From: Escherichia phage Sa157lw
Strand: one strand, 5' to 3'
Sequence record: OK322699.1
Length of the DNA stretch: 64,000 nt
Shown here: positions 2,027 through 50,815 of the stretch, in pieces
Layout: each line of letters begins with the position of its first letter
Numbering within the stretch: the first letter of the stretch is position 1
Position numbers and translations under genes: made by a program
Notes under the pieces: model-generated
What the model was told of the DNA's origin: nothing
The model's database searches: none
Seen by the model: only the letters and a program-made list of their open reading frames with translations

Positions 2027-3349
2027 ATGACTAAGAAACTTGTAACCGAAGAAATGCGCAAACAGTGGCTGCCAGTTCTCCAAAAAGAATCTGAAGCCAT
2101 CCAACCTCTGTCTGCCGAAAACGTAACCATCCGTCTGATGCAAAACCAGGCCGAGTGGAACGCTAAAAACCTGGGCGAATCCGACGCTCCTGGTTCTGTA
2201 AACAGCACTGTCGGTAAATGGCAGCCAGTCCTGATCGACATGGCAAAACGTCTAGCGCCGATCAACATCGCAATGGACTTCTTCGGCGTTCAGCCGCTGT
2301 CTGGTCCTGATGGTCAGATCTTCGCACTGCGTGCTCGCCAAGGTGTTGGTGACGGTTCTACTACCGCTCAGGCGCGTAAAGAACTGTTCATGAACGAAGC
2401 CGATTCCGGCTACTCTGGTGATGGCACTGTACAGGCTGGTGACCCGTCAGGCTTCAGTCAGGCTGAGATCGAAGGTTCCGGCTCTGTCGTGACCACTATC
2501 GGTAAAGGTATGCCGTCAACCGACGCGGAACTGCTGGGTACTACCACCAATCCGTGGGCGCGTGTTGGTATTACCGTTCAGAAAGCGACCGTTACTGCCA
2601 AGTCTCGCGGCCTGTATGCTGATTACAGCCATGAACTGCGTCAGGATATGATGGCAATTCACGGCGAAGACGTGGACAATATCCTGTCTGACGTGATGGT
2701 AACTGAAATTCAGGCGGAAATGAACCGTGAATTCATCCGCACCATGAACTTCAGTGCTGTTCGTTTCAAAAAATTCGGCACCAACGGTGTTGTTGATATC
2801 GCACAGGACATCTCCGGTCGTTGGGCGCTGGAAAAATGGAAATTCCTGACTTTCATGCTGGAAGTCGAAGCGAATGGTATCGGCGTTGACACCCGTCGTG
2901 GTAAAGGCAACCGTGTTCTGTGTTCTCCGAACGTGGCGTCTGCTCTGGCGATGTCCGGCATGCTGGACTATGCTCCGGTTCTGCAGGAAAACACCAAACT
3001 GGCTGTTGACCCGACTGGTCAGACCTTCGCGGGTGTTCTGTCCAACGGCATGCGCGTCTATGTTGACCCATATGCTGTAGCAGAATATATCACCCTGGCG
3101 TATAAAGGCGCGACCGCGCTGGATGCTGGTATCTTCTTCGCACCGTATGTGCCGCTGGAAATGTACCGTACTCAGGGTGAAACCACCTTCGCTCCGCGTA
3201 TGGCGTTCAAAACCCGTTACGGCATCTGTGCTAACCCGTTCGTTCAGATTCCGGCTAACCAAGACCCGCAGGTTTACGTGACTGCTGACGGTATTGCTCA
3301 AGACAGCAACCCATACTTCCGTAAAGGTCTCATCAAATCTCTGTTCTAA
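2027..3349 (+). CDS. 23: major capsid protein gp23
   Basis: 440 aa; motifs FGVQPLSGPDGQIFALRA, YVDPYA, FKTRYGI, C-terminal YFRKG match T4 gp23 pattern. Confidence 0.9.
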   Translation: MTKKLVTEEMRKQWLPVLQKESEAIQPLSAENVTIRLMQNQAEWNAKNLGESDAPGSVNSTVGKWQPVLIDMAKRLAPINIAMDFFGVQPLSGPDGQIFALRARQGVGDGSTTAQARKELFMNEADSGYSGDGTVQAGDPSGFSQAEIEGSGSVVTTIGKGMPSTDAELLGTTTNPWARVGITVQKATVTAKSRGLYADYSHELRQDMMAIHGEDVDNILSDVMVTEIQAEMNREFIRTMNFSAVRFKKFGTNGVVDIAQDISGRWALEKWKFLTFMLEVEANGIGVDTRRGKGNRVLCSPNVASALAMSGMLDYAPVLQENTKLAVDPTGQTFAGVLSNGMRVYVDPYAVAEYITLAYKGATALDAGIFFAPYVPLEMYRTQGETTFAPRMAFKTRYGICANPFVQIPANQDPQVYVTADGIAQDSNPYFRKGLIKSLF

Positions 3350-30281: not shown

Positions 30282-32003
30282 GTGACAGCATTTAATCAAT
30301 ACCGAAAGGCGATTGACGCCATAGGCCGTAAGGTTCCTATAGAAGAAATACAAAGCCTTGCCAAAAACGAATTTCCATATGACAAGGCGAACCAAGGCCA
30401 GATGGAATGTATCGTCGAAGCCGTTGATGCCTTGGTCAACAAAAAGGTCAAACACGTGATCATTGAAGCCCCAACTGGCGTGGGGAAATCTTTGATTGGG
30501 ACAACAATTCATAAAGTGATTCGCCATTTGGTTTTACAGGCCGATCCTTATGGGCAATTCCGCACGTCTATCAGTACGCCCACCAAAGGTCTACAAGATC
30601 AGTATGCTGCTGAAAAGGCGGTGGCGATAGACATCCTGAAAGGCAAGAAGAACTATCGTTGCCACGTACACCCAGATGTGTATTACAACGCCGTGCAATG
30701 CCGTATAGCATGCCGCGACGGGCATTGTAGCAAACGCCGTTGTCCTTATGTACAGGCGCGCAATTTATGGACTGATATTTCGTCATTGCGTTGCACTAAT
30801 GCAGCTATGATGATTGAGATGTGCACCACCATCTGTATGAAGCCTGAAAACCGTTCCGATATGCTGATCTTAGACGAGTGCCATAAGATGCCCTCTACGC
30901 TCCTAGAGCACACGATAATGGAATACAATACAAAGGCTGTGGATGGGCTGCGAACTATCCCCGAAGGGAAGGAGATAGTCTCTATCATTGCCGATATCGT
31001 AGAACGCACCAAGGACTATGTCTTGGGCAAGTTGTATTCCTTGTCCGGTGAAATGCATTCGATGTTTGAAGACCTCCATCTTAAAGTGGAGTCTTTGTTG
31101 GAAGTTCTTGAAGAATTGGTTGAAGATGACCGCCTGAGTGAAAGCCAGGTGATGAAACTCGCCGACATTATCGATGTACTACACAATCTGAGTGATTATT
31201 GTGGTATTATGTCTCAGACAAAGGCCAGCACCTTTATCGTACAGGAAAAGGGAGATGACTTTATTCGGTTTAAACCCGTCATGCCTTCTGATGTAAGTGA
31301 ATTTGGATTGTTCAGGAAAGCCGATTACCATGTTCATATGTCGGCAACAATCTGCGGAATCGATTCATATGCCCGTTCCTTGGGTATCCGCCAGGGGGAT
31401 TATCATTCAATACAGATTGGAAATCCAATCCCAATTGAAAATCGGAAAGTCAACTATATGCCCATCGTTAAGATGACCAACAACATGGGCGATTATGAAA
31501 TGAAAAGGCTGACGGAATACATTGATGAAATAATCGCATTCCATCCAGGGCAATCTGGCATCATACATACGGTGAGCTATGATCGCGCATTAGCAATACA
31601 AAAATTCAGCAAATACCAGAACTTTATCCATGTGCCACGCACTCGAAAGGCGTTGATGGATATTATGGAAAATGCCTTCAGGACAAAAACACCTTGTGTT
31701 ATTGCCAGTCCGGCCATGGAAGAAGGATATGACTTCAAAGGTGATTACAGCCGATTCCAAATACTGATCAAAGTTCCTTACGATTATTTGGGTGATCCAT
31801 TGATCGCACATATTAATTCAGTGGATCCGTCTGCGTACTTCCGCAACGCAGTATTGCGCATTGTTCAGATGTGCGGACGTTCGGTCAGGGGTGTGGATGA
31901 CTGGGCTGCAACATACATAATCGATTCTTCCTTTGAATCTCTTATGATGCGCAACCCAGAGTTCTTCCCAACCTGGTTCACCGATGCAGTATTTGAAGTT
32001 TAA
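30282..32003 (+). CDS. DinG/XPD-like SF2 helicase with Fe-S cysteine cluster
   Basis: 573 aa; Walker A EAPTGVGKS, DECH box LILDECHK, Cys cluster CHVH..C..C..C..C. Confidence 0.55.
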   Translation: MTAFNQYRKAIDAIGRKVPIEEIQSLAKNEFPYDKANQGQMECIVEAVDALVNKKVKHVIIEAPTGVGKSLIGTTIHKVIRHLVLQADPYGQFRTSISTPTKGLQDQYAAEKAVAIDILKGKKNYRCHVHPDVYYNAVQCRIACRDGHCSKRRCPYVQARNLWTDISSLRCTNAAMMIEMCTTICMKPENRSDMLILDECHKMPSTLLEHTIMEYNTKAVDGLRTIPEGKEIVSIIADIVERTKDYVLGKLYSLSGEMHSMFEDLHLKVESLLEVLEELVEDDRLSESQVMKLADIIDVLHNLSDYCGIMSQTKASTFIVQEKGDDFIRFKPVMPSDVSEFGLFRKADYHVHMSATICGIDSYARSLGIRQGDYHSIQIGNPIPIENRKVNYMPIVKMTNNMGDYEMKRLTEYIDEIIAFHPGQSGIIHTVSYDRALAIQKFSKYQNFIHVPRTRKALMDIMENAFRTKTPCVIASPAMEEGYDFKGDYSRFQILIKVPYDYLGDPLIAHINSVDPSAYFRNAVLRIVQMCGRSVRGVDDWAATYIIDSSFESLMMRNPEFFPTWFTDAVFEV

Positions 32004-38555: not shown

Positions 38556-39173
38556 ATGACGATGACAACGTTGAAGGCCATGGCCTTGTCCGTGACCTTT
38601 ACCATTGCCAGCGGGAGTGTGCACGCTTCCCAAAGTACCACCCAATGTGATTACGAATTTTCTGATCAGCAACTTTCAACTATGGCCACTGCCTATCACA
38701 TAGGCAAACAGCAAGACCTTGGTTTCACCCTAGCCGCGATATCATGGAGGGAAAGCCGCGCCGGAGAAGATGTGGTATCCATGCGGAATAACCTGAAATC
38801 GGCTAATATGGGGGCATTCCAAAATCGCGTCCAAACCGTTGGGAAACGGGAGGGATGCAAAACACAGAAGTGTTACGCCAACGTGGCGATTAAATTGCTG
38901 GTCAATCAAGAGTACGCAGCCAATGCAGCCCTTGATGAAATGAATTTCTGGCTTGGATATCATAACCAAAACATCCGCAAATCGCTCTCCTCTTACAATG
39001 CCGGTTTCAGTCGTAACCAAAAATCCAATTCATACGCTGCTGATGTCGTGAAGAAGGCTAAATATCTTCAACGATGTGTGTCTTTCAAAGGCATGGCAAT
39101 AAACCCGAAGGTCGACCCAGGAGTGATCGCCATGAATAAGCGCACGATTGAGAAACTCAAGAGGACCCGATAA
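38556..39173 (+). CDS. secreted protein with lytic transglycosylase (SLT)-like motif
   Basis: signal peptide with VHA-SQ cleavage-like site; AISWRESRAGEDVVS..ANMGAFQN resembles the ES..GLMQ motif of SLT domains. Confidence 0.4.
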   Translation: MTMTTLKAMALSVTFTIASGSVHASQSTTQCDYEFSDQQLSTMATAYHIGKQQDLGFTLAAISWRESRAGEDVVSMRNNLKSANMGAFQNRVQTVGKREGCKTQKCYANVAIKLLVNQEYAANAALDEMNFWLGYHNQNIRKSLSSYNAGFSRNQKSNSYAADVVKKAKYLQRCVSFKGMAINPKVDPGVIAMNKRTIEKLKRTR

Positions 39174-40285: not shown

Positions 40286-40366
40286 TACGAATATGCGGGG
40301 GCTTGATGCCCCTTTCTTTTCGCTAATTAAGGAAAACCGCACCGATTTATTATCAGGAGAATTACA

Positions 40367-42754
40367 ATGGCCATCCAATCTTTCTTAAATTTCCTTGACG
40401 AGTCCAAACAATTGGACGAAGCGTTTAACTCCGCTCCATACGAATTGACTTTCGGCAAGAAAAATGCTGGTGACATTTTCTTCACGTTCGTAGACGAAGA
40501 TGAAAAAGAATTCCGCATCCAATTTTATACCCCGCAGGGGCTGGGCAAGAACGTTCGTCAGGTCTTCATAGGCCAGAAACGTGGTTCAACCTATCCAGAC
40601 GCAATCGGTCGTTTCAAAAACCCAATGCGTGTCATCGCATCCATGATCGAAGCGACTAAACAATTCATGGCGACACCGCTGGGTAAAACCATTGATGGGT
40701 TTGCGATTAACTTCTCCAAGAAAGCTCTAGAACGCGGAACGACGTTACTCCCAAAAATTATTCGTCAATCTGGTCTGAAGCAGAAACTCAACGTCATGGA
40801 TCTGACTTATACCCCAATCCCTGACCGTGCCTTCGTATGGGTTGTGCGTAAAGGCAAGGATCCTGCTCAGGTATTTGATGGTCCGAAAATGAAAGGCGTG
40901 ACTTGGGACGATCCAGACAAAGTCGGTGACGTTCCTGACCAGGCTGCTCGTGACGCCGCACTACAAGGTGACATGGATGATTTGAGCCAATCCATAAATG
41001 CCGATTCTCGCTGGATTCTGACCAAAGCTGATCATACTCAGCCTATGCTGGTCTGGTCTGGTAAAGAACGTGGGCGGACTATTACCGCCAATATCGCACC
41101 TCACGCGAATGAACCTGGTGTGTATGCTGGTAGTATCATGAACGAGAAACGGATCCGCGCTCAATCCCCAGACGCTATTGTACGCCAACTGGGATTACCG
41201 CAGATCCCTGTGAATATTCTGAATGATTTCACCAAGCAGTCGTCCATCTTCTGGAAAGAGATGACGGGGGATTCTGGAAAAATAGACATGCAGACTTTGC
41301 CAAAAACAGGATCTGTGGATGACTTACGAAATCAGGGTTATATTGCTCGCCTTCTGGGGATTGTAGACACATATGCTCCACAACAGGTCGGTATGTATGC
41401 AGGTGAGAAACTAACACGAATCGGCGCGGGCAAATATCGTACTTCGGGTGGTCTGGACATTCAGGTTTATTTCTGGGGAATTGTCAACGGAAAACTTTCT
41501 GTAGAAGTGGTTTCTGATTTATCTGGCAATGAACAGCTGATGCTGGAAGGCGACGTGAAAAACGCTGCTTTTGAAATCGTCAGTGCGATATCCCGTGCTG
41601 CTGATTCTCAGTTCAACGGTGAAGTGGAATGTCGTGTTGTTCCGATCAACGGTGCCCCATACCCGATTCAAAAGGTTTCCCGTTCTCAGGGTTATTCTTA
41701 TGTCGATTGTATTTCGTTTACTTTGAAGATCGCCGATGCATTGTTAAATCGATTTACTCTGGGTAAGGCAGTCAAACTCGATCTGATAAAAGAGTTCCCT
41801 CGAACGACGTTTATTGTTCGTTATGACTGGCGCAGCAAAGATACTCTGATGGTCCAGTCTTCTGATGGGAAGACTATCTTCGGCGAAATCAACACAAATT
41901 CCAGTGATAACGCTGTCATCACTGCGAACCTGAAAGCCCCAAGCAATGCGAAGATATTTGGTGAAACCGTTCATGGGTTCTCTGTGGCTTGGGACTTCCA
42001 GTTCCCTGCGGGTAGCCAGCTGCAAGCCGCAAGATTCGTTACCAACGTGACTTACGACTTCGATCGTAATAAGGCCAACATCACGACCATGCTGACAGAA
42101 AATGGCCGAAATGTAGTCAATAGCAGCGGATATGACATTCAGTTATCTGTCAAGTCTGTGCAAGATGCATTGAATGAGACTTCACAACGCCTGAAAGACG
42201 CTGCGGCTCAATTGAGCCATCTTGGTTCATCAAACTATAACCCGAACAAGCTGTTCCTGAATGATATCACCGTCAGTAAGTTTGGTGCAATTATGTTCCA
42301 AGACAAAGATCTGGCACAGTCCAAAAACCGCACGGCAGTCATTGATGCTTTGGCTCGGGCGAAAGATCAGGTCGCTGGTGGTAAGAATGCAGGCGATCTG
42401 GCCACCTATGCCGGATCCATTCGTGATAGCGCTCCTAATGGACGAGATCTGGATTGGCAGGTATACACAGCCAGTAATGGTACAGTTCTGAATGTTGCCT
42501 GGGATATCACTTTCCGTCGCAATACGACCGAAGGAGCATATCGTGAATTCAAGGATCAGATCAACCGTGCCAACCAATACCTGCAAACGGTATACAACGA
42601 CGCGAAATCTAAAGGCTATAATCCTACCGAGCCAAATCTCATGACTCTTGAACGCGCTCGCCAATCCGACGAATGGGCTATGAGTAATGGTGATAGTGCA
42701 TACAGTGAATATGAACAATCGCTGGGTGGTAATCTTCAGATTAGTCTGAAATAA
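40367..42754 (+). CDS. hypothetical large protein (795 aa)
   Basis: long ORF, AGGAGAATTACAATG start; shares a ~40-aa module with the next gene. Confidence 0.5.
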   Translation: MAIQSFLNFLDESKQLDEAFNSAPYELTFGKKNAGDIFFTFVDEDEKEFRIQFYTPQGLGKNVRQVFIGQKRGSTYPDAIGRFKNPMRVIASMIEATKQFMATPLGKTIDGFAINFSKKALERGTTLLPKIIRQSGLKQKLNVMDLTYTPIPDRAFVWVVRKGKDPAQVFDGPKMKGVTWDDPDKVGDVPDQAARDAALQGDMDDLSQSINADSRWILTKADHTQPMLVWSGKERGRTITANIAPHANEPGVYAGSIMNEKRIRAQSPDAIVRQLGLPQIPVNILNDFTKQSSIFWKEMTGDSGKIDMQTLPKTGSVDDLRNQGYIARLLGIVDTYAPQQVGMYAGEKLTRIGAGKYRTSGGLDIQVYFWGIVNGKLSVEVVSDLSGNEQLMLEGDVKNAAFEIVSAISRAADSQFNGEVECRVVPINGAPYPIQKVSRSQGYSYVDCISFTLKIADALLNRFTLGKAVKLDLIKEFPRTTFIVRYDWRSKDTLMVQSSDGKTIFGEINTNSSDNAVITANLKAPSNAKIFGETVHGFSVAWDFQFPAGSQLQAARFVTNVTYDFDRNKANITTMLTENGRNVVNSSGYDIQLSVKSVQDALNETSQRLKDAAAQLSHLGSSNYNPNKLFLNDITVSKFGAIMFQDKDLAQSKNRTAVIDALARAKDQVAGGKNAGDLATYAGSIRDSAPNGRDLDWQVYTASNGTVLNVAWDITFRRNTTEGAYREFKDQINRANQYLQTVYNDAKSKGYNPTEPNLMTLERARQSDEWAMSNGDSAYSEYEQSLGGNLQISLK

Positions 42755-42805
42755 GTCATAGCCCCTTCGGGGGCTAAATACATCAAAATCCTTAGGAGAT
42801 CCACG

Positions 42806-43351
42806 ATGAAACCGTTTATCGAATATTTTAAAGAACAAGCTCAACAACCGCAAACTCATGGCGGCATACAAGGCAAAAGTGTAACCATCACCAAACAGGC
42901 CGACGGAACCCAATGGTGTACTGGTGCCACCGTGACCCAGATCACTCCAGATAATCAGGCCGACATCTATAATCTGGAATTGACTAATGGCAACACCATC
43001 AAAGTGAAGCTAACTCCAGACCAGACCCACGGCATTACCCAAGGCCAAGAAGTTGTTGCCGTCCATGATGGTTTTGAATTTTTCTTCGGCAAGTCAGCTG
43101 ACAAAGGTCAGGTTACTGAAGCGGAAGGCTGGCGTTTCGTCGGTGACCGTGGCGCTCATATTCTGATGTATGACGCAAAAGTTGGCGGTGCCTCCACTAT
43201 CCTTCGCAGTCCAACAGATCGAACCAAATTTGTTGGTGGTCTCATCAACGGTAGAAAAATTTTGGGTAATTCCCCAGAAGAACTGGCGGCAAAATTAGGT
43301 CTTCCAAAAATTCCTGATAATTTATTAAAATCGTTTTTTGGTAAAAAGTGA
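42806..43351 (+). CDS. hypothetical protein sharing LGLPxIPxNxL module
   Basis: 181 aa; C-terminal SPEELAAKLGLPKIPDNLLKSF parallels aa 267-290 of the 795-aa protein. Confidence 0.45.
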   Translation: MKPFIEYFKEQAQQPQTHGGIQGKSVTITKQADGTQWCTGATVTQITPDNQADIYNLELTNGNTIKVKLTPDQTHGITQGQEVVAVHDGFEFFFGKSADKGQVTEAEGWRFVGDRGAHILMYDAKVGGASTILRSPTDRTKFVGGLINGRKILGNSPEELAAKLGLPKIPDNLLKSFFGKK

Positions 43352-43362
43352 TTATAAAATAC

Positions 43363-43395
43363 AATCCCCCTAAATACAGGGGGATTTTCTTTTTA
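43363..43395 (+). terminator. stem-loop AATCCCCC taaataca GGGGGATT + TTCTTTTT
   Basis: inverted repeat. Confidence 0.6.
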
Positions 43396-43407
43396 GGGGT
43401 AAATATC

Positions 43408-43761
43408 ATGGTCAATGCGAGTATATTCATCAACCGTGGACTGCTTGCTATAGCCCACTCCCATGCCCTCCACTTCGTTACAACGTCCTATGCCAAGCAC
43501 AAGGCACTCGGGGAGTTCTACGGGGAACTGGAGGACTTGCTGGATACCTTCACAGAGGCATATATCGGCGCGGGTGGTGTATATGTCCCAGGGTTTGAGA
43601 ATATTAAACTGTACAACCCAGATCCTATATCGTATGTCAACAGTGTTGTTATCGACGTAAACGGAATTTATGGTCAATGCGACAGCCATCTTCAAAATAC
43701 GCTTGATGAAATCAAAACTTTGTGCTATCAAACGATTTACAAACTGAAGAAATTGTCCTAA
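43408..43761 (+). CDS. hypothetical protein
   Basis: ORF 43348..43761 trimmed to MVNAS. Confidence 0.35.
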   Translation: MVNASIFINRGLLAIAHSHALHFVTTSYAKHKALGEFYGELEDLLDTFTEAYIGAGGVYVPGFENIKLYNPDPISYVNSVVIDVNGIYGQCDSHLQNTLDEIKTLCYQTIYKLKKLS

Positions 43762-48532: not shown

Positions 48533-50815
48533 ATGATTAACATCATAAAGCGGGACGGATCTTCTGTCCCCTTTGACATTGAAAAACTCCACACTGTTCT
48601 TGAACGTGCCTGTGAAGGATTAGAAGGAGTTTCGGTGTCTGAGGTGGAAGCAGCATCGAAGATTCAGTTCACAGACAATATGAAAACCGAACGCATTCAG
48701 GATATTATCATCCAAGCGGCGGCTACATTGATTTCTGTAGAAAAACCCAACTACCAATATGTTGCTGCCCGTCTGAAATCGTATGACCTGCGCAAAGTCG
48801 TCTATGGGCGATACAAGCCACCTCATTTGCTTGATATATTCGCTAAAAACATCAAGCAGGGCGTTTATGATCGTGAATTCCTCGAACTCTATACGAAAGA
48901 AGAATTTGAAGAACTGAACACGGTCATCAATCACAAACGCGACAAGAATTTTACTTGGGCGGCTATGGGCCAGCTCACGCAAAAATATCTTTTGCGCGAT
49001 CGCTCAGCAGACAGCAAAGTATATTACGAAACGCCTCAAGTCATGTATATGGCGATCGCGATGGCTCTGTTCTCTGCATGGGATAAAGAAACCCGCCTGA
49101 CGATGGTGAAGAAATTTTATGAATACGCCAGTACAGGTAAATTCAGTCTTCCAACACCCATCATGTCCGGCGTTCGTACCCCAACCCGCCAATTCAGTTC
49201 TTGTGTTCTTATCAAAACTGGTGACACTTTGGACTCAATCAATGCTACAGCCAAAAGTATTGTTGATTATGTATCCAAACGCGCTGGGATCGGATTTGAT
49301 GTCGGAGCAATTCGCGGCATCGGTAGCCCTATCCGAAAAGGCGAAATGGTGCACACAGGCCTGGTTCCTTTCATCAAATATCTGACTGGGGCATTAAAGT
49401 CTTGCTCTCAAGGCGGTATTCGTGGCGGATCAGCAACTTGCTATATCCCTATCTGGCATTATCAATTTGATGATGTTGTGGTCCTGAAGAATAACCGTGG
49501 TCTTGAAGAGAACCGTGAACGCCGTATCGACTACGGTATTCAGATCAACCGTGTCATGTTCGAACGTCTGGTGAACAAACAACCCCTGTATTTGTTCGAT
49601 CCGAAAGACAACCGCGATATGTACGAAGCGTTTTTCGCAGATGTCGATAAGTTCCGTACCCTGTACGACAACATGGTCAAAGCTGCTGATGCTGGTTTGG
49701 TTCGTGCCAAGAAGATGAATGCGGAAGAAGTATTCCAGATGTTGTTGGATCAGCGTTCAGATACAGGCCGCATCTACATCGCGTTTGTCGACCACATGAA
49801 CCAGTACAGTCCATTCAATCTAGACACAATCTATAGTTCTAATCTGTGTCTGGAGATTGCGCTTCCTACTCGTGAATTCCAACAGTACGACGATGAAGAA
49901 GGTCGGATCGCTCTGTGTACTTTGGCCTCTTTTAACCTGACGGCGTTTGAAGACCCGACAGAAATGGAAGATGTTGCTTTCGTTCTGGTTTCAGCTTTGG
50001 ATATGTTGTTGGAATATCAGGACTACCCAGCTCGCCAAGCCCGTTTGGCTGTAGAAGAATATCGTCCTCTGGGTATCGGTATCGTCAACGTCGCGCATTT
50101 CTTCGCCAAGAACTTCACGGGGTATGGATCTCCTGTTGGGTTAGAACTCCTGGACAAGTGGATGGCGCACCTGCATTTCTATCTGGTAAAGGCTTCGAAT
50201 CGTCTGGCCATGAAGTTTGGGGCATGTAAGAAGGAAACCATTCATCGTTCTGGTAAGATAACAGCCGACCTTCAACCGTTGCCGCTGGATATCCTCCCCA
50301 ATGGTAAAAAGCCGGAAGGTATGGCATACGGCCTTGACTGGGACGGTTTGAAAGACTCTCTGCGTTGCCATGGTATCCGCAATGCTACTCTCTTGGCGAT
50401 AGCACCAACTGAAAGCTCCTCTCAGGTGCTGAACGCCACGAATGGTATAGAGCCACCCAAAGGCCTCATCAGTATCAAAGGCAGCAAGGATGGCGTTTAC
50501 AAGCAGATCGTTCCGGACGTTGAAACCCTTGGTCCTCTATATGACCTGAAATGGAATCTGTCTTGTATCGACTATTTGAAAACAGCGGCGGTCGCCCAGC
50601 GTTGGGTAGACCAATCCATCAGCGTTAATACACATTATGATCCAGAGAAATTCCCAGACGGGAAGATCCCGCGCTCTCTCATGATGCAGGATATTCTGTC
50701 TTTCTACATGTGGGGTGGTAAAACTCTGTATTACAACACCAACAAAGACTCTAAGGAAGATGAAGAGTTGAAACAAATTGAAGATCCGAATCACTGTGAC
50801 ACCTGTGTTGTCTGA
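48533..50815 (+). CDS. nrdA: ribonucleotide reductase class Ia large subunit NrdA
   Basis: 760 aa; ATP-cone start MINIIKRDGSSVPFD, C-terminal redox cysteine pair. Confidence 0.9.
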   Translation: MINIIKRDGSSVPFDIEKLHTVLERACEGLEGVSVSEVEAASKIQFTDNMKTERIQDIIIQAAATLISVEKPNYQYVAARLKSYDLRKVVYGRYKPPHLLDIFAKNIKQGVYDREFLELYTKEEFEELNTVINHKRDKNFTWAAMGQLTQKYLLRDRSADSKVYYETPQVMYMAIAMALFSAWDKETRLTMVKKFYEYASTGKFSLPTPIMSGVRTPTRQFSSCVLIKTGDTLDSINATAKSIVDYVSKRAGIGFDVGAIRGIGSPIRKGEMVHTGLVPFIKYLTGALKSCSQGGIRGGSATCYIPIWHYQFDDVVVLKNNRGLEENRERRIDYGIQINRVMFERLVNKQPLYLFDPKDNRDMYEAFFADVDKFRTLYDNMVKAADAGLVRAKKMNAEEVFQMLLDQRSDTGRIYIAFVDHMNQYSPFNLDTIYSSNLCLEIALPTREFQQYDDEEGRIALCTLASFNLTAFEDPTEMEDVAFVLVSALDMLLEYQDYPARQARLAVEEYRPLGIGIVNVAHFFAKNFTGYGSPVGLELLDKWMAHLHFYLVKASNRLAMKFGACKKETIHRSGKITADLQPLPLDILPNGKKPEGMAYGLDWDGLKDSLRCHGIRNATLLAIAPTESSSQVLNATNGIEPPKGLISIKGSKDGVYKQIVPDVETLGPLYDLKWNLSCIDYLKTAAVAQRWVDQSISVNTHYDPEKFPDGKIPRSLMMQDILSFYMWGGKTLYYNTNKDSKEDEELKQIEDPNHCDTCVV

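Follow-up and report, generated by a model that had tools for sequence, protein, structure and literature searches.

A cassette domain shared by two adjacent Kuttervirus proteins with candidate leaders resembling the capsid-targeting sequence of T4 internal proteins

Two adjacent genes of Escherichia phage Sa157lw encode a large protein of 795 amino acids (aa) and a small protein of 181 aa that have a stretch of sequence in common. This raises the question of what the shared stretch is, and what it does in two such different carriers. The DNA analysed, referred to below as the window, comprises 64,000 nucleotides (nt) of sequence record OK322699.1. It shares 99.7% identity with Salmonella phage Se_EM1 and 97% with Escherichia phage CBA120, and is assigned to the genus Kuttervirus of the family Ackermannviridae. 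Both open reading frames (ORFs) lie where an earlier note on this DNA had placed them (Table 1), and both of their CBA120 counterparts carry the annotation 'hypothetical'. The explanation favoured here, and considered probable, is a system in the style of phage T4, in which leaders of the capsid-targeting sequence (CTS) type package both proteins in the head and the shared module is exchangeable cargo. Its basis is the homology of the module, the autonomy of its fold, its cassette behaviour, the virion association of homologues, the conservation of the leaders, the head machinery, and late-promoter motifs.

The earlier note described the shared stretch as a module of about 40 residues (241-290 in the large protein, 131-177 in the small protein). 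The module is real and is in fact larger, namely a whole domain. BLASTP aligns residues 253-288 of the large protein with residues 142-177 of the small protein over 36 residues, with 39% identity and E=7e-8. The Smith-Waterman score is 84, compared with 36.4±5.2 for shuffled sequences, and none of 2000 shuffles (1000 of either partner) reaches it, the maximum being 68. The corresponding Gumbel p is about 5e-6. An alignment aided by homologues widens the similarity to residues 108-177 of the small protein and 215-288 of the large protein. A family alignment of 17 sequences gives the limits listed in Table 1, a length of about 76-90 residues, with an invariant tryptophan near the start and a nearly invariant phenylalanine at the end. 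Predicted alone with AlphaFold2 (AF2), this M-type module consists of five beta-strands followed by two helices, with a predicted local distance difference test score (pLDDT) of 92.3 and a predicted template modelling score of 0.83. In the model, the motif SP[DE]..LGLPxIPxNxL..F forms a helix-turn-helix-like joint between the two C-terminal helices.

A hidden Markov model (HMM) search finds only two copies of the module in the window. A convincing match is absent from Pfam, PHROGs, and the Protein Data Bank (PDB), and a profile search of 1.84e9 representative proteins returns only homologues of the large protein and the 181-aa protein, plus two spurious repeat proteins. The M-type module is a new autonomous domain family confined to this phage lineage. 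Among 126 proteins of the large family, the HMM finds no copy in 27, one copy in 97, and two copies in 2. Every combination of presence and absence across the two carriers occurs: the module is in both proteins in the window, in the large protein only in phage Sajous1, and in the small protein only in phage FrontPhageNews. The module is a swapped cassette and behaves as interchangeable cargo, not as a targeting signal.

The large protein has three parts, which are an N-domain (to residue 190), a slot, and a conserved body from about residue 301-305. The N-domain is conserved into Vibrio and Aeromonas phages, with 57% identity in Vibrio phages (tblastn). The contents of the slot vary by phage. 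It is empty, or holds the M-type module, diverged M-type modules, one of at least four unrelated inserts, or two to three of these combined. Across the homologues, at least 6 unrelated inserts are seen in the slot. The Vi01-type large protein is without the module. A Pfam scan of 37 large-protein homologues finds a known domain in no cassette. In Limestonevirus, the large proteins carry a diverged copy of the M-type module, and it is most of the body that is missing from them. Part of the body (41891-42400, residues ~509-678) is found again as an extra, diverged copy with ~31% identity in the slot of homologues P0087-P0090, so body domains can also duplicate into the slot. The large protein is annotated as two or three ORFs in Shigella phage Ag3 (L005 3001-5380) and in LIMEstone1 (ORF81/ORF82). 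These split ORFs in the older records are probably frameshift or annotation artefacts, because PP35, which belongs to the species of LIMEstone1, has a single ORF of 531 aa, and the split was therefore rejected as a natural test of separate leaders.

Family and structure searches of both proteins (Pfam, PHROGs, NCBIfam, PDB sequence) give no match above threshold; phrog_3867 and phrog_4048 both stand as 'unknown function'. Foldseek with the full-length model finds no match in the PDB at E<=0.001, the weak matches being HemS-like and PUR-alpha-like. LPD3, a polyvalent-protein domain, is sub-threshold in the large protein of the window (E=0.031, 14.9 bits against a cut-off of 27), and is matched at E<=0.05 in only 4 of the 37 homologues.

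The small protein consists of a conserved N-domain (1-105) followed by one of three alternative C-domains, which are the M-type, that of a 189-aa form, and the gp216-type. The M-type form occurs in the window and in 49 phage records, 45 of which are at least 99% identical. The C-domain of the 189-aa form (ending ..LAADIAKYLGVKP) was considered as a diverged M-type module and rejected, with an hhalign probability of 0.4%. At the DNA level, window positions 43121-43359 stand in place of the 189-type C-domain and the 79-aa gene gp216 of Sajous1. The gp216-type domain is shared in the same cassette manner: Sajous1 has it as a free-standing protein, P0023 as a fusion with the small protein (E=3e-21), and the large homologue P0153 within its own sequence (E=5e-16). 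The N-domain is linked to the swappable C-domain by the junction GQVTE/A (43117-43123, residues 101-106; the slash here and below marks a candidate cleavage point), in which G101, V103, T104, and E105 are invariant. Recombination has its junction at this point too. In an alignment, GQVTE/A pairs with the last residues of the gp216 leader (..FLKE/A), and it resembles the VTE/AFN site of distant large-protein homologues. These likenesses make it a candidate internal protease site. It may be a third site of this kind, at which the cargo domain would be freed.

The evidence for the virion comes from published mass spectrometry of close homologues, in Sajous1 and LIMEstone1, rather than of this phage. 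In liquid chromatography-tandem mass spectrometry of caesium chloride-purified Sajous1, gp214 accounts for 196 spectra, a number exceeded only by the capsid protein and gp140, and gp215, the small-protein orthologue in its 189-aa form, for 32 (PMC10892097). Spectral counts are not copy numbers. The same analysis found gp216 (20 spectra), gp116 (10), the ferritin-like gp217 (10), and gp211 (31), which is the SLT-like orthologue of the protein encoded at 38556-39173 (PMC10892097). The GenBank protein Sajous1_214 is the 795-aa homologue (P0029), 97% identical to the window protein, and the capsid, portal, protease, and sheath genes have the same numbers in the Sajous1 record as in the paper. In LIMEstone1, the products of ORF78, 80, 81, 82, and 85 were detected as 'unknown structural proteins', ORF81 with 23 unique peptides (PMC3296691). 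By mass, these LIMEstone1 products correspond to the ferritin-like, small, and DUF7270 proteins of PP35, and ORF81 with ORF82 corresponds to the large protein. The earlier note had suggested that the two proteins are packaged, and the presence of homologues of both in the virions of two phages bears it out as far as the virion is concerned. Since the small protein without the module (189 aa) is incorporated in both phages, the module is dispensable for the incorporation of that carrier.

[quoted passage not shown] Their CTS was reportedly characterised by Mullaney and Black in 1996. As read from the T4 genome, the leader is MKTYQEFIAE/A in IPII and IPIII, and begins MKTFKEF.. in IPI. According to mutagenesis of the T4 CTS, residues 4 and 7 serve targeting, and residues 8 and 10, the last being Glu, serve processing (PMC9026906). 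Proteases of the T4 type cleave after Glu, and CTS propeptides have 10-20 residues (PMC5694885). The small protein of the window begins MKPFIEYFKE/QA, in which positions 4 and 7 are aromatic, position 8 is hydrophobic, and position 10 is Glu, as in T4. Its relatives start with MKKFSEFLAE/Q and similar sequences, in which F4 and E10 are invariant. The leader of gp216 is MKGFPDFLKE/A, and that of its Ag3 version is MKGFKDFLAE/A. Distant homologues of the large protein start with MKSTFSGFIAE/A..LVTE/AFN. In the large family, the first candidate site is conserved in 84 of 87 proteins and the second, [LIVM]xE/AFN, in all 87, and the other residues of the leader vary. AF2 predicts a helix of low confidence at residues 3-20 of the large protein.

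The earlier note held that the two N-termini are alike, resemble the T4 CTS, and carry LxE sites suited to the gp21 protease. Each of these points stands in part. The pairwise alignment of the first 30 residues is not significant (p≈0.08), and what the two families have in common is the pattern aromatic-x-x-aromatic-hydrophobic-x-Glu, present in 84/87 large and 24/27 small proteins. LxE sites occur twice in the large protein, as L-D-E at residues 10-12 and 16-18, and in relatives of the small protein (LAE, LKE, LIE, LVE), though not in the small protein of the window. The likeness to the T4 CTS holds for the small protein by a rule taken from T4 only, and is weaker for the large protein, which is caught only by a post-hoc rule C.

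The T4-only leader rule, ^MK.[FY]..[FY], was derived solely from the three internal proteins IPI-III. The search covered all ORFs of 40 aa or more that start with ATG, on either strand of the Sajous1 genome (157,255 bp), and yields 5 matches, compared with 0.2 in shuffled genomes. As a control, the same rule applied to an 18-kb T4 locus returns exactly ipI, ipII, and ipIII. The five Sajous1 matches are gp215, gp216, gp116 (MKTFLEFYRE/S), gp82 (MKSFQDYLED), and the baseplate protein gp55, whose match is probably a coincidence. The 149-aa gp116 scores above the Pfam cut-off (E=9e-11) as an ADP-ribosyltransferase of the ART-PolyVal family. Its leader, late-promoter motif, and detection in the virion indicate a functional parallel to packaged T4 Alt, and gp116 is likely a packaged, Alt-like effector.

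Further observations concern individual leader matches. The gp116 gene lies at 71641-72090 (-) of Sajous1 record MW021757, has CTAAATA 33 nt upstream, and is annotated only as hypothetical. The gp82 gene lies at 50037-50258 (-) of the same record, and its 73-aa product is not in the published mass spectrometry list. Position 10 of gp82 is Asp, not Glu, a change which in T4 stops processing and spares targeting. In the window, the sequence MKRLTEYIDE at 31500-32003 (+) fits the loose leader pattern. It is internal to a 573-aa helicase ORF (30282-32003), and is most likely a chance match.

Head machinery of the T4 type is encoded in Sajous1. Its gp155 is a Peptidase_S77 protein, that is, a gp21-family protease (E=1.3e-27), its gp156 is a T4_CASP protein, a gp22-type scaffold (E=9.4e-45), and its major capsid protein matches T4 gp23 (E=7e-63). 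In the window, the ORFs at 381-1049, 1096-1935, and 2027-3349 (+; 222, 279, and 440 aa) match the protease, the scaffold, and the major capsid protein by length and order only. This suggests that head-maturation machinery is encoded in the same window.

The timing of expression is suggested by promoter motifs. The sites labelled 'Kuttervirus late gene promoter' in the SPTD1 record have CTAAATA in common. The sheath, head-core, scaffold, neck, and gp140 genes of Sajous1 have this motif 27-49 nt upstream, and the coding strand carries 7 of its 8 copies. The window has eight copies, all on the plus strand (1061, 9732, 22750, 38471, 39058, 42774, 43370, and 57792), of which four cluster at 38.4-43.4 kb and most have a start codon 30-115 nt downstream. 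Their number as such does not exceed chance (8 against 6.5 expected); the strand bias and the positions fit the late promoter of the family. In Limestonevirus and Agtrevirus, the canonical T4 TATAAATA is found at the place of the small gene's CTAAATA. In the window, the exact T4 late promoter TATAAATA is not enriched, and it is absent upstream of both genes. The large gene is preceded by a CTAATTA element, which is kept across Kuttervirus, Limestonevirus, and Agtrevirus though the flanks are unrelated. A terminator-like hairpin with a T-run (40296-40320) lies directly upstream of the element and the large gene. The element may be a promoter of unassigned class.

Table 1. Features of the two-gene locus in the window (positions in nt of the 64,000-nt stretch)
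Feature	Position	Strand	Basis and remarks
CTAATTA element in TCG-CTAATTA-AGG.AAACCGC	40322..40328	+	~45 nt upstream of large gene, just after hairpin
Large-protein gene, 795 aa	40367..42754	+	ORF; CBA120 orf111/gp086; homologue of Sajous1 gp214
Putative propeptide/CTS-like leader of large protein, MAIQSFLNFLDE/SKQLDE/AFN	40367..40420	+	Two candidate Glu-C sites, after residues 12 and 18
N-terminal alpha/beta domain of large protein, nearly invariant	40421..40936	+	Residues 19-190; invariant columns, AF2; isoelectric point (pI) 9.7
Acidic disordered linker, left edge of cassette slot	40937..41002	+	Residues 191-212; pLDDT below 50
M-type module, copy 1	41003..41266	+	Large-protein residues 213-300; alignments, HMM match, AF2 model; pI 9.7
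Conserved C-terminal body, repeated beta-sheet and helix units, without known fold match	41267..42751	+	Residues 301-795
Late-promoter motif CTAAATA	42774..42780	+	32 nt upstream of small gene; overlaps hairpin 42760-42775
Small-protein gene, 181 aa	42806..43351	+	ORF; CBA120 orf109/gp085; variant of Sajous1 gp215
CTS-like leader of small protein, MKPFIEYFKE/	42806..42835	+	Comparison with T4 IPII/IPIII; T4-only rules A and B
Conserved N-domain of small protein, weak TOBE/OB-like signal	42836..43120	+	Residues 11-105; ends at invariant GQVTE/A junction
M-type module, copy 2	43121..43348	+	Small-protein residues 106-181; swappable C-terminal cassette; pI 10.1

The two genes lie among genes of replication and recombination, namely those for helicase, RNase H, a late sigma factor like gp55, gp47/46, and primase. 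Closest to them are genes encoding an SLT protein like Vs.1, a protein with DUF7270, and a ferritin-like protein with DUF5856, the last being a homologue of T4 rI.-1. The locus has loose synteny with the ipII/ipIII neighbourhood of T4 (vs.1, regB, e, rI.-1). The homologue of T4 Vs.1 (38556-39173, +) has 205 aa, with an N-terminus resembling a signal peptide and a borderline domain of the SLT transglycosylase type. It is named 'RegB endoribonuclease' in several GenBank records, which is apparently a propagated mis-annotation. The DUF5856/ferritin-like homologue of T4 rI.-1 ('starvation-inducible transcriptional regulator') is encoded at 43408-43761 (+; 117 aa), has CTAAATA ahead of its gene at 43370, and is without a CTS-like leader.

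In the T4-style system proposed here, both genes would be expressed late, and the proteins would enter the prohead by means of a short N-terminal CTS-type leader that attaches to the gp22-like core of the scaffold. In a next step, the prohead protease of the gp21 family would remove the leader by a cut after Glu, at E10 in the small protein and at E12, E18, or both in the large protein. The N-terminus expected after cleavage is S13 (SKQLDEAFNSAPYELTFGK) or A19 (AFNSAPYELTFGK) for the large protein and Q11 (QAQQPQTHGGIQGK) for the small protein, and a cut at the GQVTE/A junction would leave a fragment starting at A106 (AEGWR). The mature proteins would stay in the head with the DNA and leave it with the DNA at infection. 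Recombination would move the basic module of ~76-90 residues among leader-bearing carriers as one of several cargo domains, the cargo sites being the slot between the N-domain and the body of the large protein and the swappable C-terminal domain of the small protein. A third cargo type would be represented by gp216, which occurs as a separate protein that has a leader of its own, as a fusion with the small protein, or within a large homologue. Contact with DNA or a host target is plausible, since the two copies of the module share a basic character with the T4 internal proteins. By analogy with those proteins, it may be guessed that the module binds nucleic acid or a host factor early in infection.

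Several points weigh against this explanation. The head-internal location, the proteolysis of the leader, the ejection into the host, and the function of the module are inferred, and the spectra from Sajous1 give no copy numbers. In the large protein, the leader residues F6, F9, L10, and E12 show the T4 pattern shifted by two residues. This protein is missed by the T4-only rules and caught by the looser rule C, and the case for its leader is weaker because that rule was written after the protein had been seen. The small protein of the window has F-K-E instead of L/I-x-E. Three other virion-detected proteins of the cluster, namely the SLT-like, DUF7270, and DUF5856 proteins, all lack a CTS-type leader. 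The large gene has no exact late-promoter motif, only the CTAATTA element after the terminator-like hairpin. Several database records label the large protein as a tail completion or tail fibre protein.

These labels correspond to a different explanation, in which the large protein, perhaps together with the small one, belongs to the outer structure of the particle as a component of the tail completion, neck, fibre, or capsid-decoration type, the cassettes are surface adhesins, and the N-terminal pattern is coincidental or an assembly helix. The literature is silent on the point: head-versus-tail evidence is given neither by the papers on the S117 tailocin (which is without proteomics), phiD3, and PP35, nor by the Det7 announcement or the 2024 family review, in which internal proteins are nowhere mentioned, and the PDB has no structure of an Ackermannviridae capsid or tail. 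An external role is nevertheless unlikely. The large protein shows no similarity to tail completion, terminator, neck, decoration, or fibre families in Pfam, PHROGs, NCBIfam, and PDB, the 'tail completion' label has no stated basis, and the AF2 model is without trimeric fibre-like architecture. The gene sits outside the tail and baseplate clusters. In addition, 84-87 of 87 homologues keep the Glu sites and the pattern of the leader, and neighbouring small proteins are caught by the T4-only rule. The only published idea for this gene cluster also points to the tail, and is the 'ferrojan horse', in which gp214-217 form a tail-associated entry system based on ferritin and molybdate (PMC10892097). 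All members concerned occur in virions, one of them is a ferritin-like four-helix protein (DUF5856), and the N-domain of the small protein has a weak TOBE/MOP-like signal, for which Phyre gives 63% confidence (PMC10892097). The Pfam TOBE match is below threshold, however (E=0.01, 16.5 bits against a cut-off of 22.3), and nothing puts these proteins on the tail. The authors of that idea themselves saw no dependence on TonB or FeoB (PMC10892097). The leaders, the Glu sites, and the cassette shuffling are left unexplained by this idea, which is highly improbable as an account of the locus.

Two other explanations concern the module itself. According to the earlier note, it could target or anchor both proteins to the capsid. 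The module is the sole significant similarity between the two proteins, and its basic character (pI 9.7 and 10.1) would allow it to touch DNA or the scaffold. Against this, the 189-aa form lacks the module and is still virion-borne in Sajous1 and LIMEstone1, 27 of the 126 large-family proteins have no copy, and its presence in one carrier is independent of that in the other. A targeting role of the module is therefore very unlikely. It is harder still to credit that the module is a short linear interaction motif, such as a sliding-clamp-binding or other replisome peptide, an idea prompted by the neighbouring helicase, RNase H, gp46/47, and primase genes and by the position of the motif at the C-terminus of the small protein (..NLLKSFF). 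The region is a folded domain of ~80 residues (pLDDT 92) with its conserved residues at the helix-loop-helix joint. Both proteins are abundant virion components, and late-promoter motifs precede the small gene. The linear-motif explanation is rejected, the region being a folded domain of proteins that occur in virions.

The T4-style system has several known counterparts. It resembles the T4 internal proteins in its MK leader of ~10 residues, with aromatic residues at 4 and 7, a hydrophobic residue at 8, Glu at 10, and then a small residue (PMC9026906, PMC3012670). Presence in the virion and the encoding of a gp21-type protease and a gp22-type core are also alike, as are the basic cargo, which is highly variable among related phages behind a constant leader, and the neighbourhood (vs.1, e, rI.-1); late expression would be a further likeness. 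In contrast, the mature parts have no sequence homology, and the T4 internal proteins are single small proteins, whereas those described here are multi-domain carriers (181 and 795 aa) with dedicated cassette slots. The leader of the large protein differs in its offset of two residues and its two candidate cleavage sites, and cleavage, location, and ejection are inferred here.

T4 Alt is a packaged ADP-ribosyltransferase of 682 aa, the N-terminal propeptide of which is removed by gp21. Like Alt, the large protein is a large head-packaged protein with a short propeptide, if the favoured explanation holds, and Kuttervirus has a leader-bearing virion ADP-ribosyltransferase, gp116 of Sajous1. Unlike Alt, the 795-aa protein has no recognisable enzymatic domain. 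The gp116 protein, encoded outside the window, is of the ART-PolyVal type (H-Y-E), whereas T4 Alt is of the Alt/VIP2 type (R-S-E).

The polyvalent proteins described by Iyer, Burroughs, Anand, de Souza, and Aravind in 2017 are similar in being multi-domain, combinatorially shuffled, and thought to be packaged and delivered with DNA, and in the gain, loss, and duplication of domains between close relatives (PMC5512222). They differ in that none of their defining domains is significant in the large protein, and packaging here would be by a T4-type CTS, not by a MuF or portal module. The ejection proteins of giant phages like phiKZ and SPN3US resemble the proposed system in being head proteins cut by a gp21-related protease C-terminal to Glu, with redundant sites in the propeptides; their propeptides, in contrast, are often longer than 100 residues and have A/S-x-E motifs, and the proteins are unrelated (PMC5694885). 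CTS-directed internal proteins of the T4 kind with polyvalent-like domain shuffling are not described for this family in the searchable literature.

If the leader works as in T4, it would define a head-packaging route for Kuttervirus and other Ackermannviridae. Members of the family such as CBA120, Vi01, Det7, and SPTD1 are widely used in biocontrol, diagnostics, and engineering. The finding would reassign one of the family's most abundant unexplained virion proteins, now labelled hypothetical, tail completion, or tail fibre protein, and would offer a simpler alternative to the 'ferrojan horse' for the cluster. The cassette behaviour of the module is a clear example of domain shuffling among co-packaged proteins. 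The hypervariable injected domains would be candidate anti-defence effectors, and the leader would be a short tag for loading foreign proteins. A wider arrangement for the Ackermannviridae can be put forward only tentatively: an address label plus interchangeable payload, in which the leader might package M-type, gp216-type, Vi01-type, and other cargoes as well as the ADP-ribosyltransferase, all injected as anti-defence effectors of the first minute of infection. If so, the arms race between phage and host would have a hotspot in the slot of the 795-aa protein, and the M-type domain would be a new family of anti-defence or host-takeover effectors.

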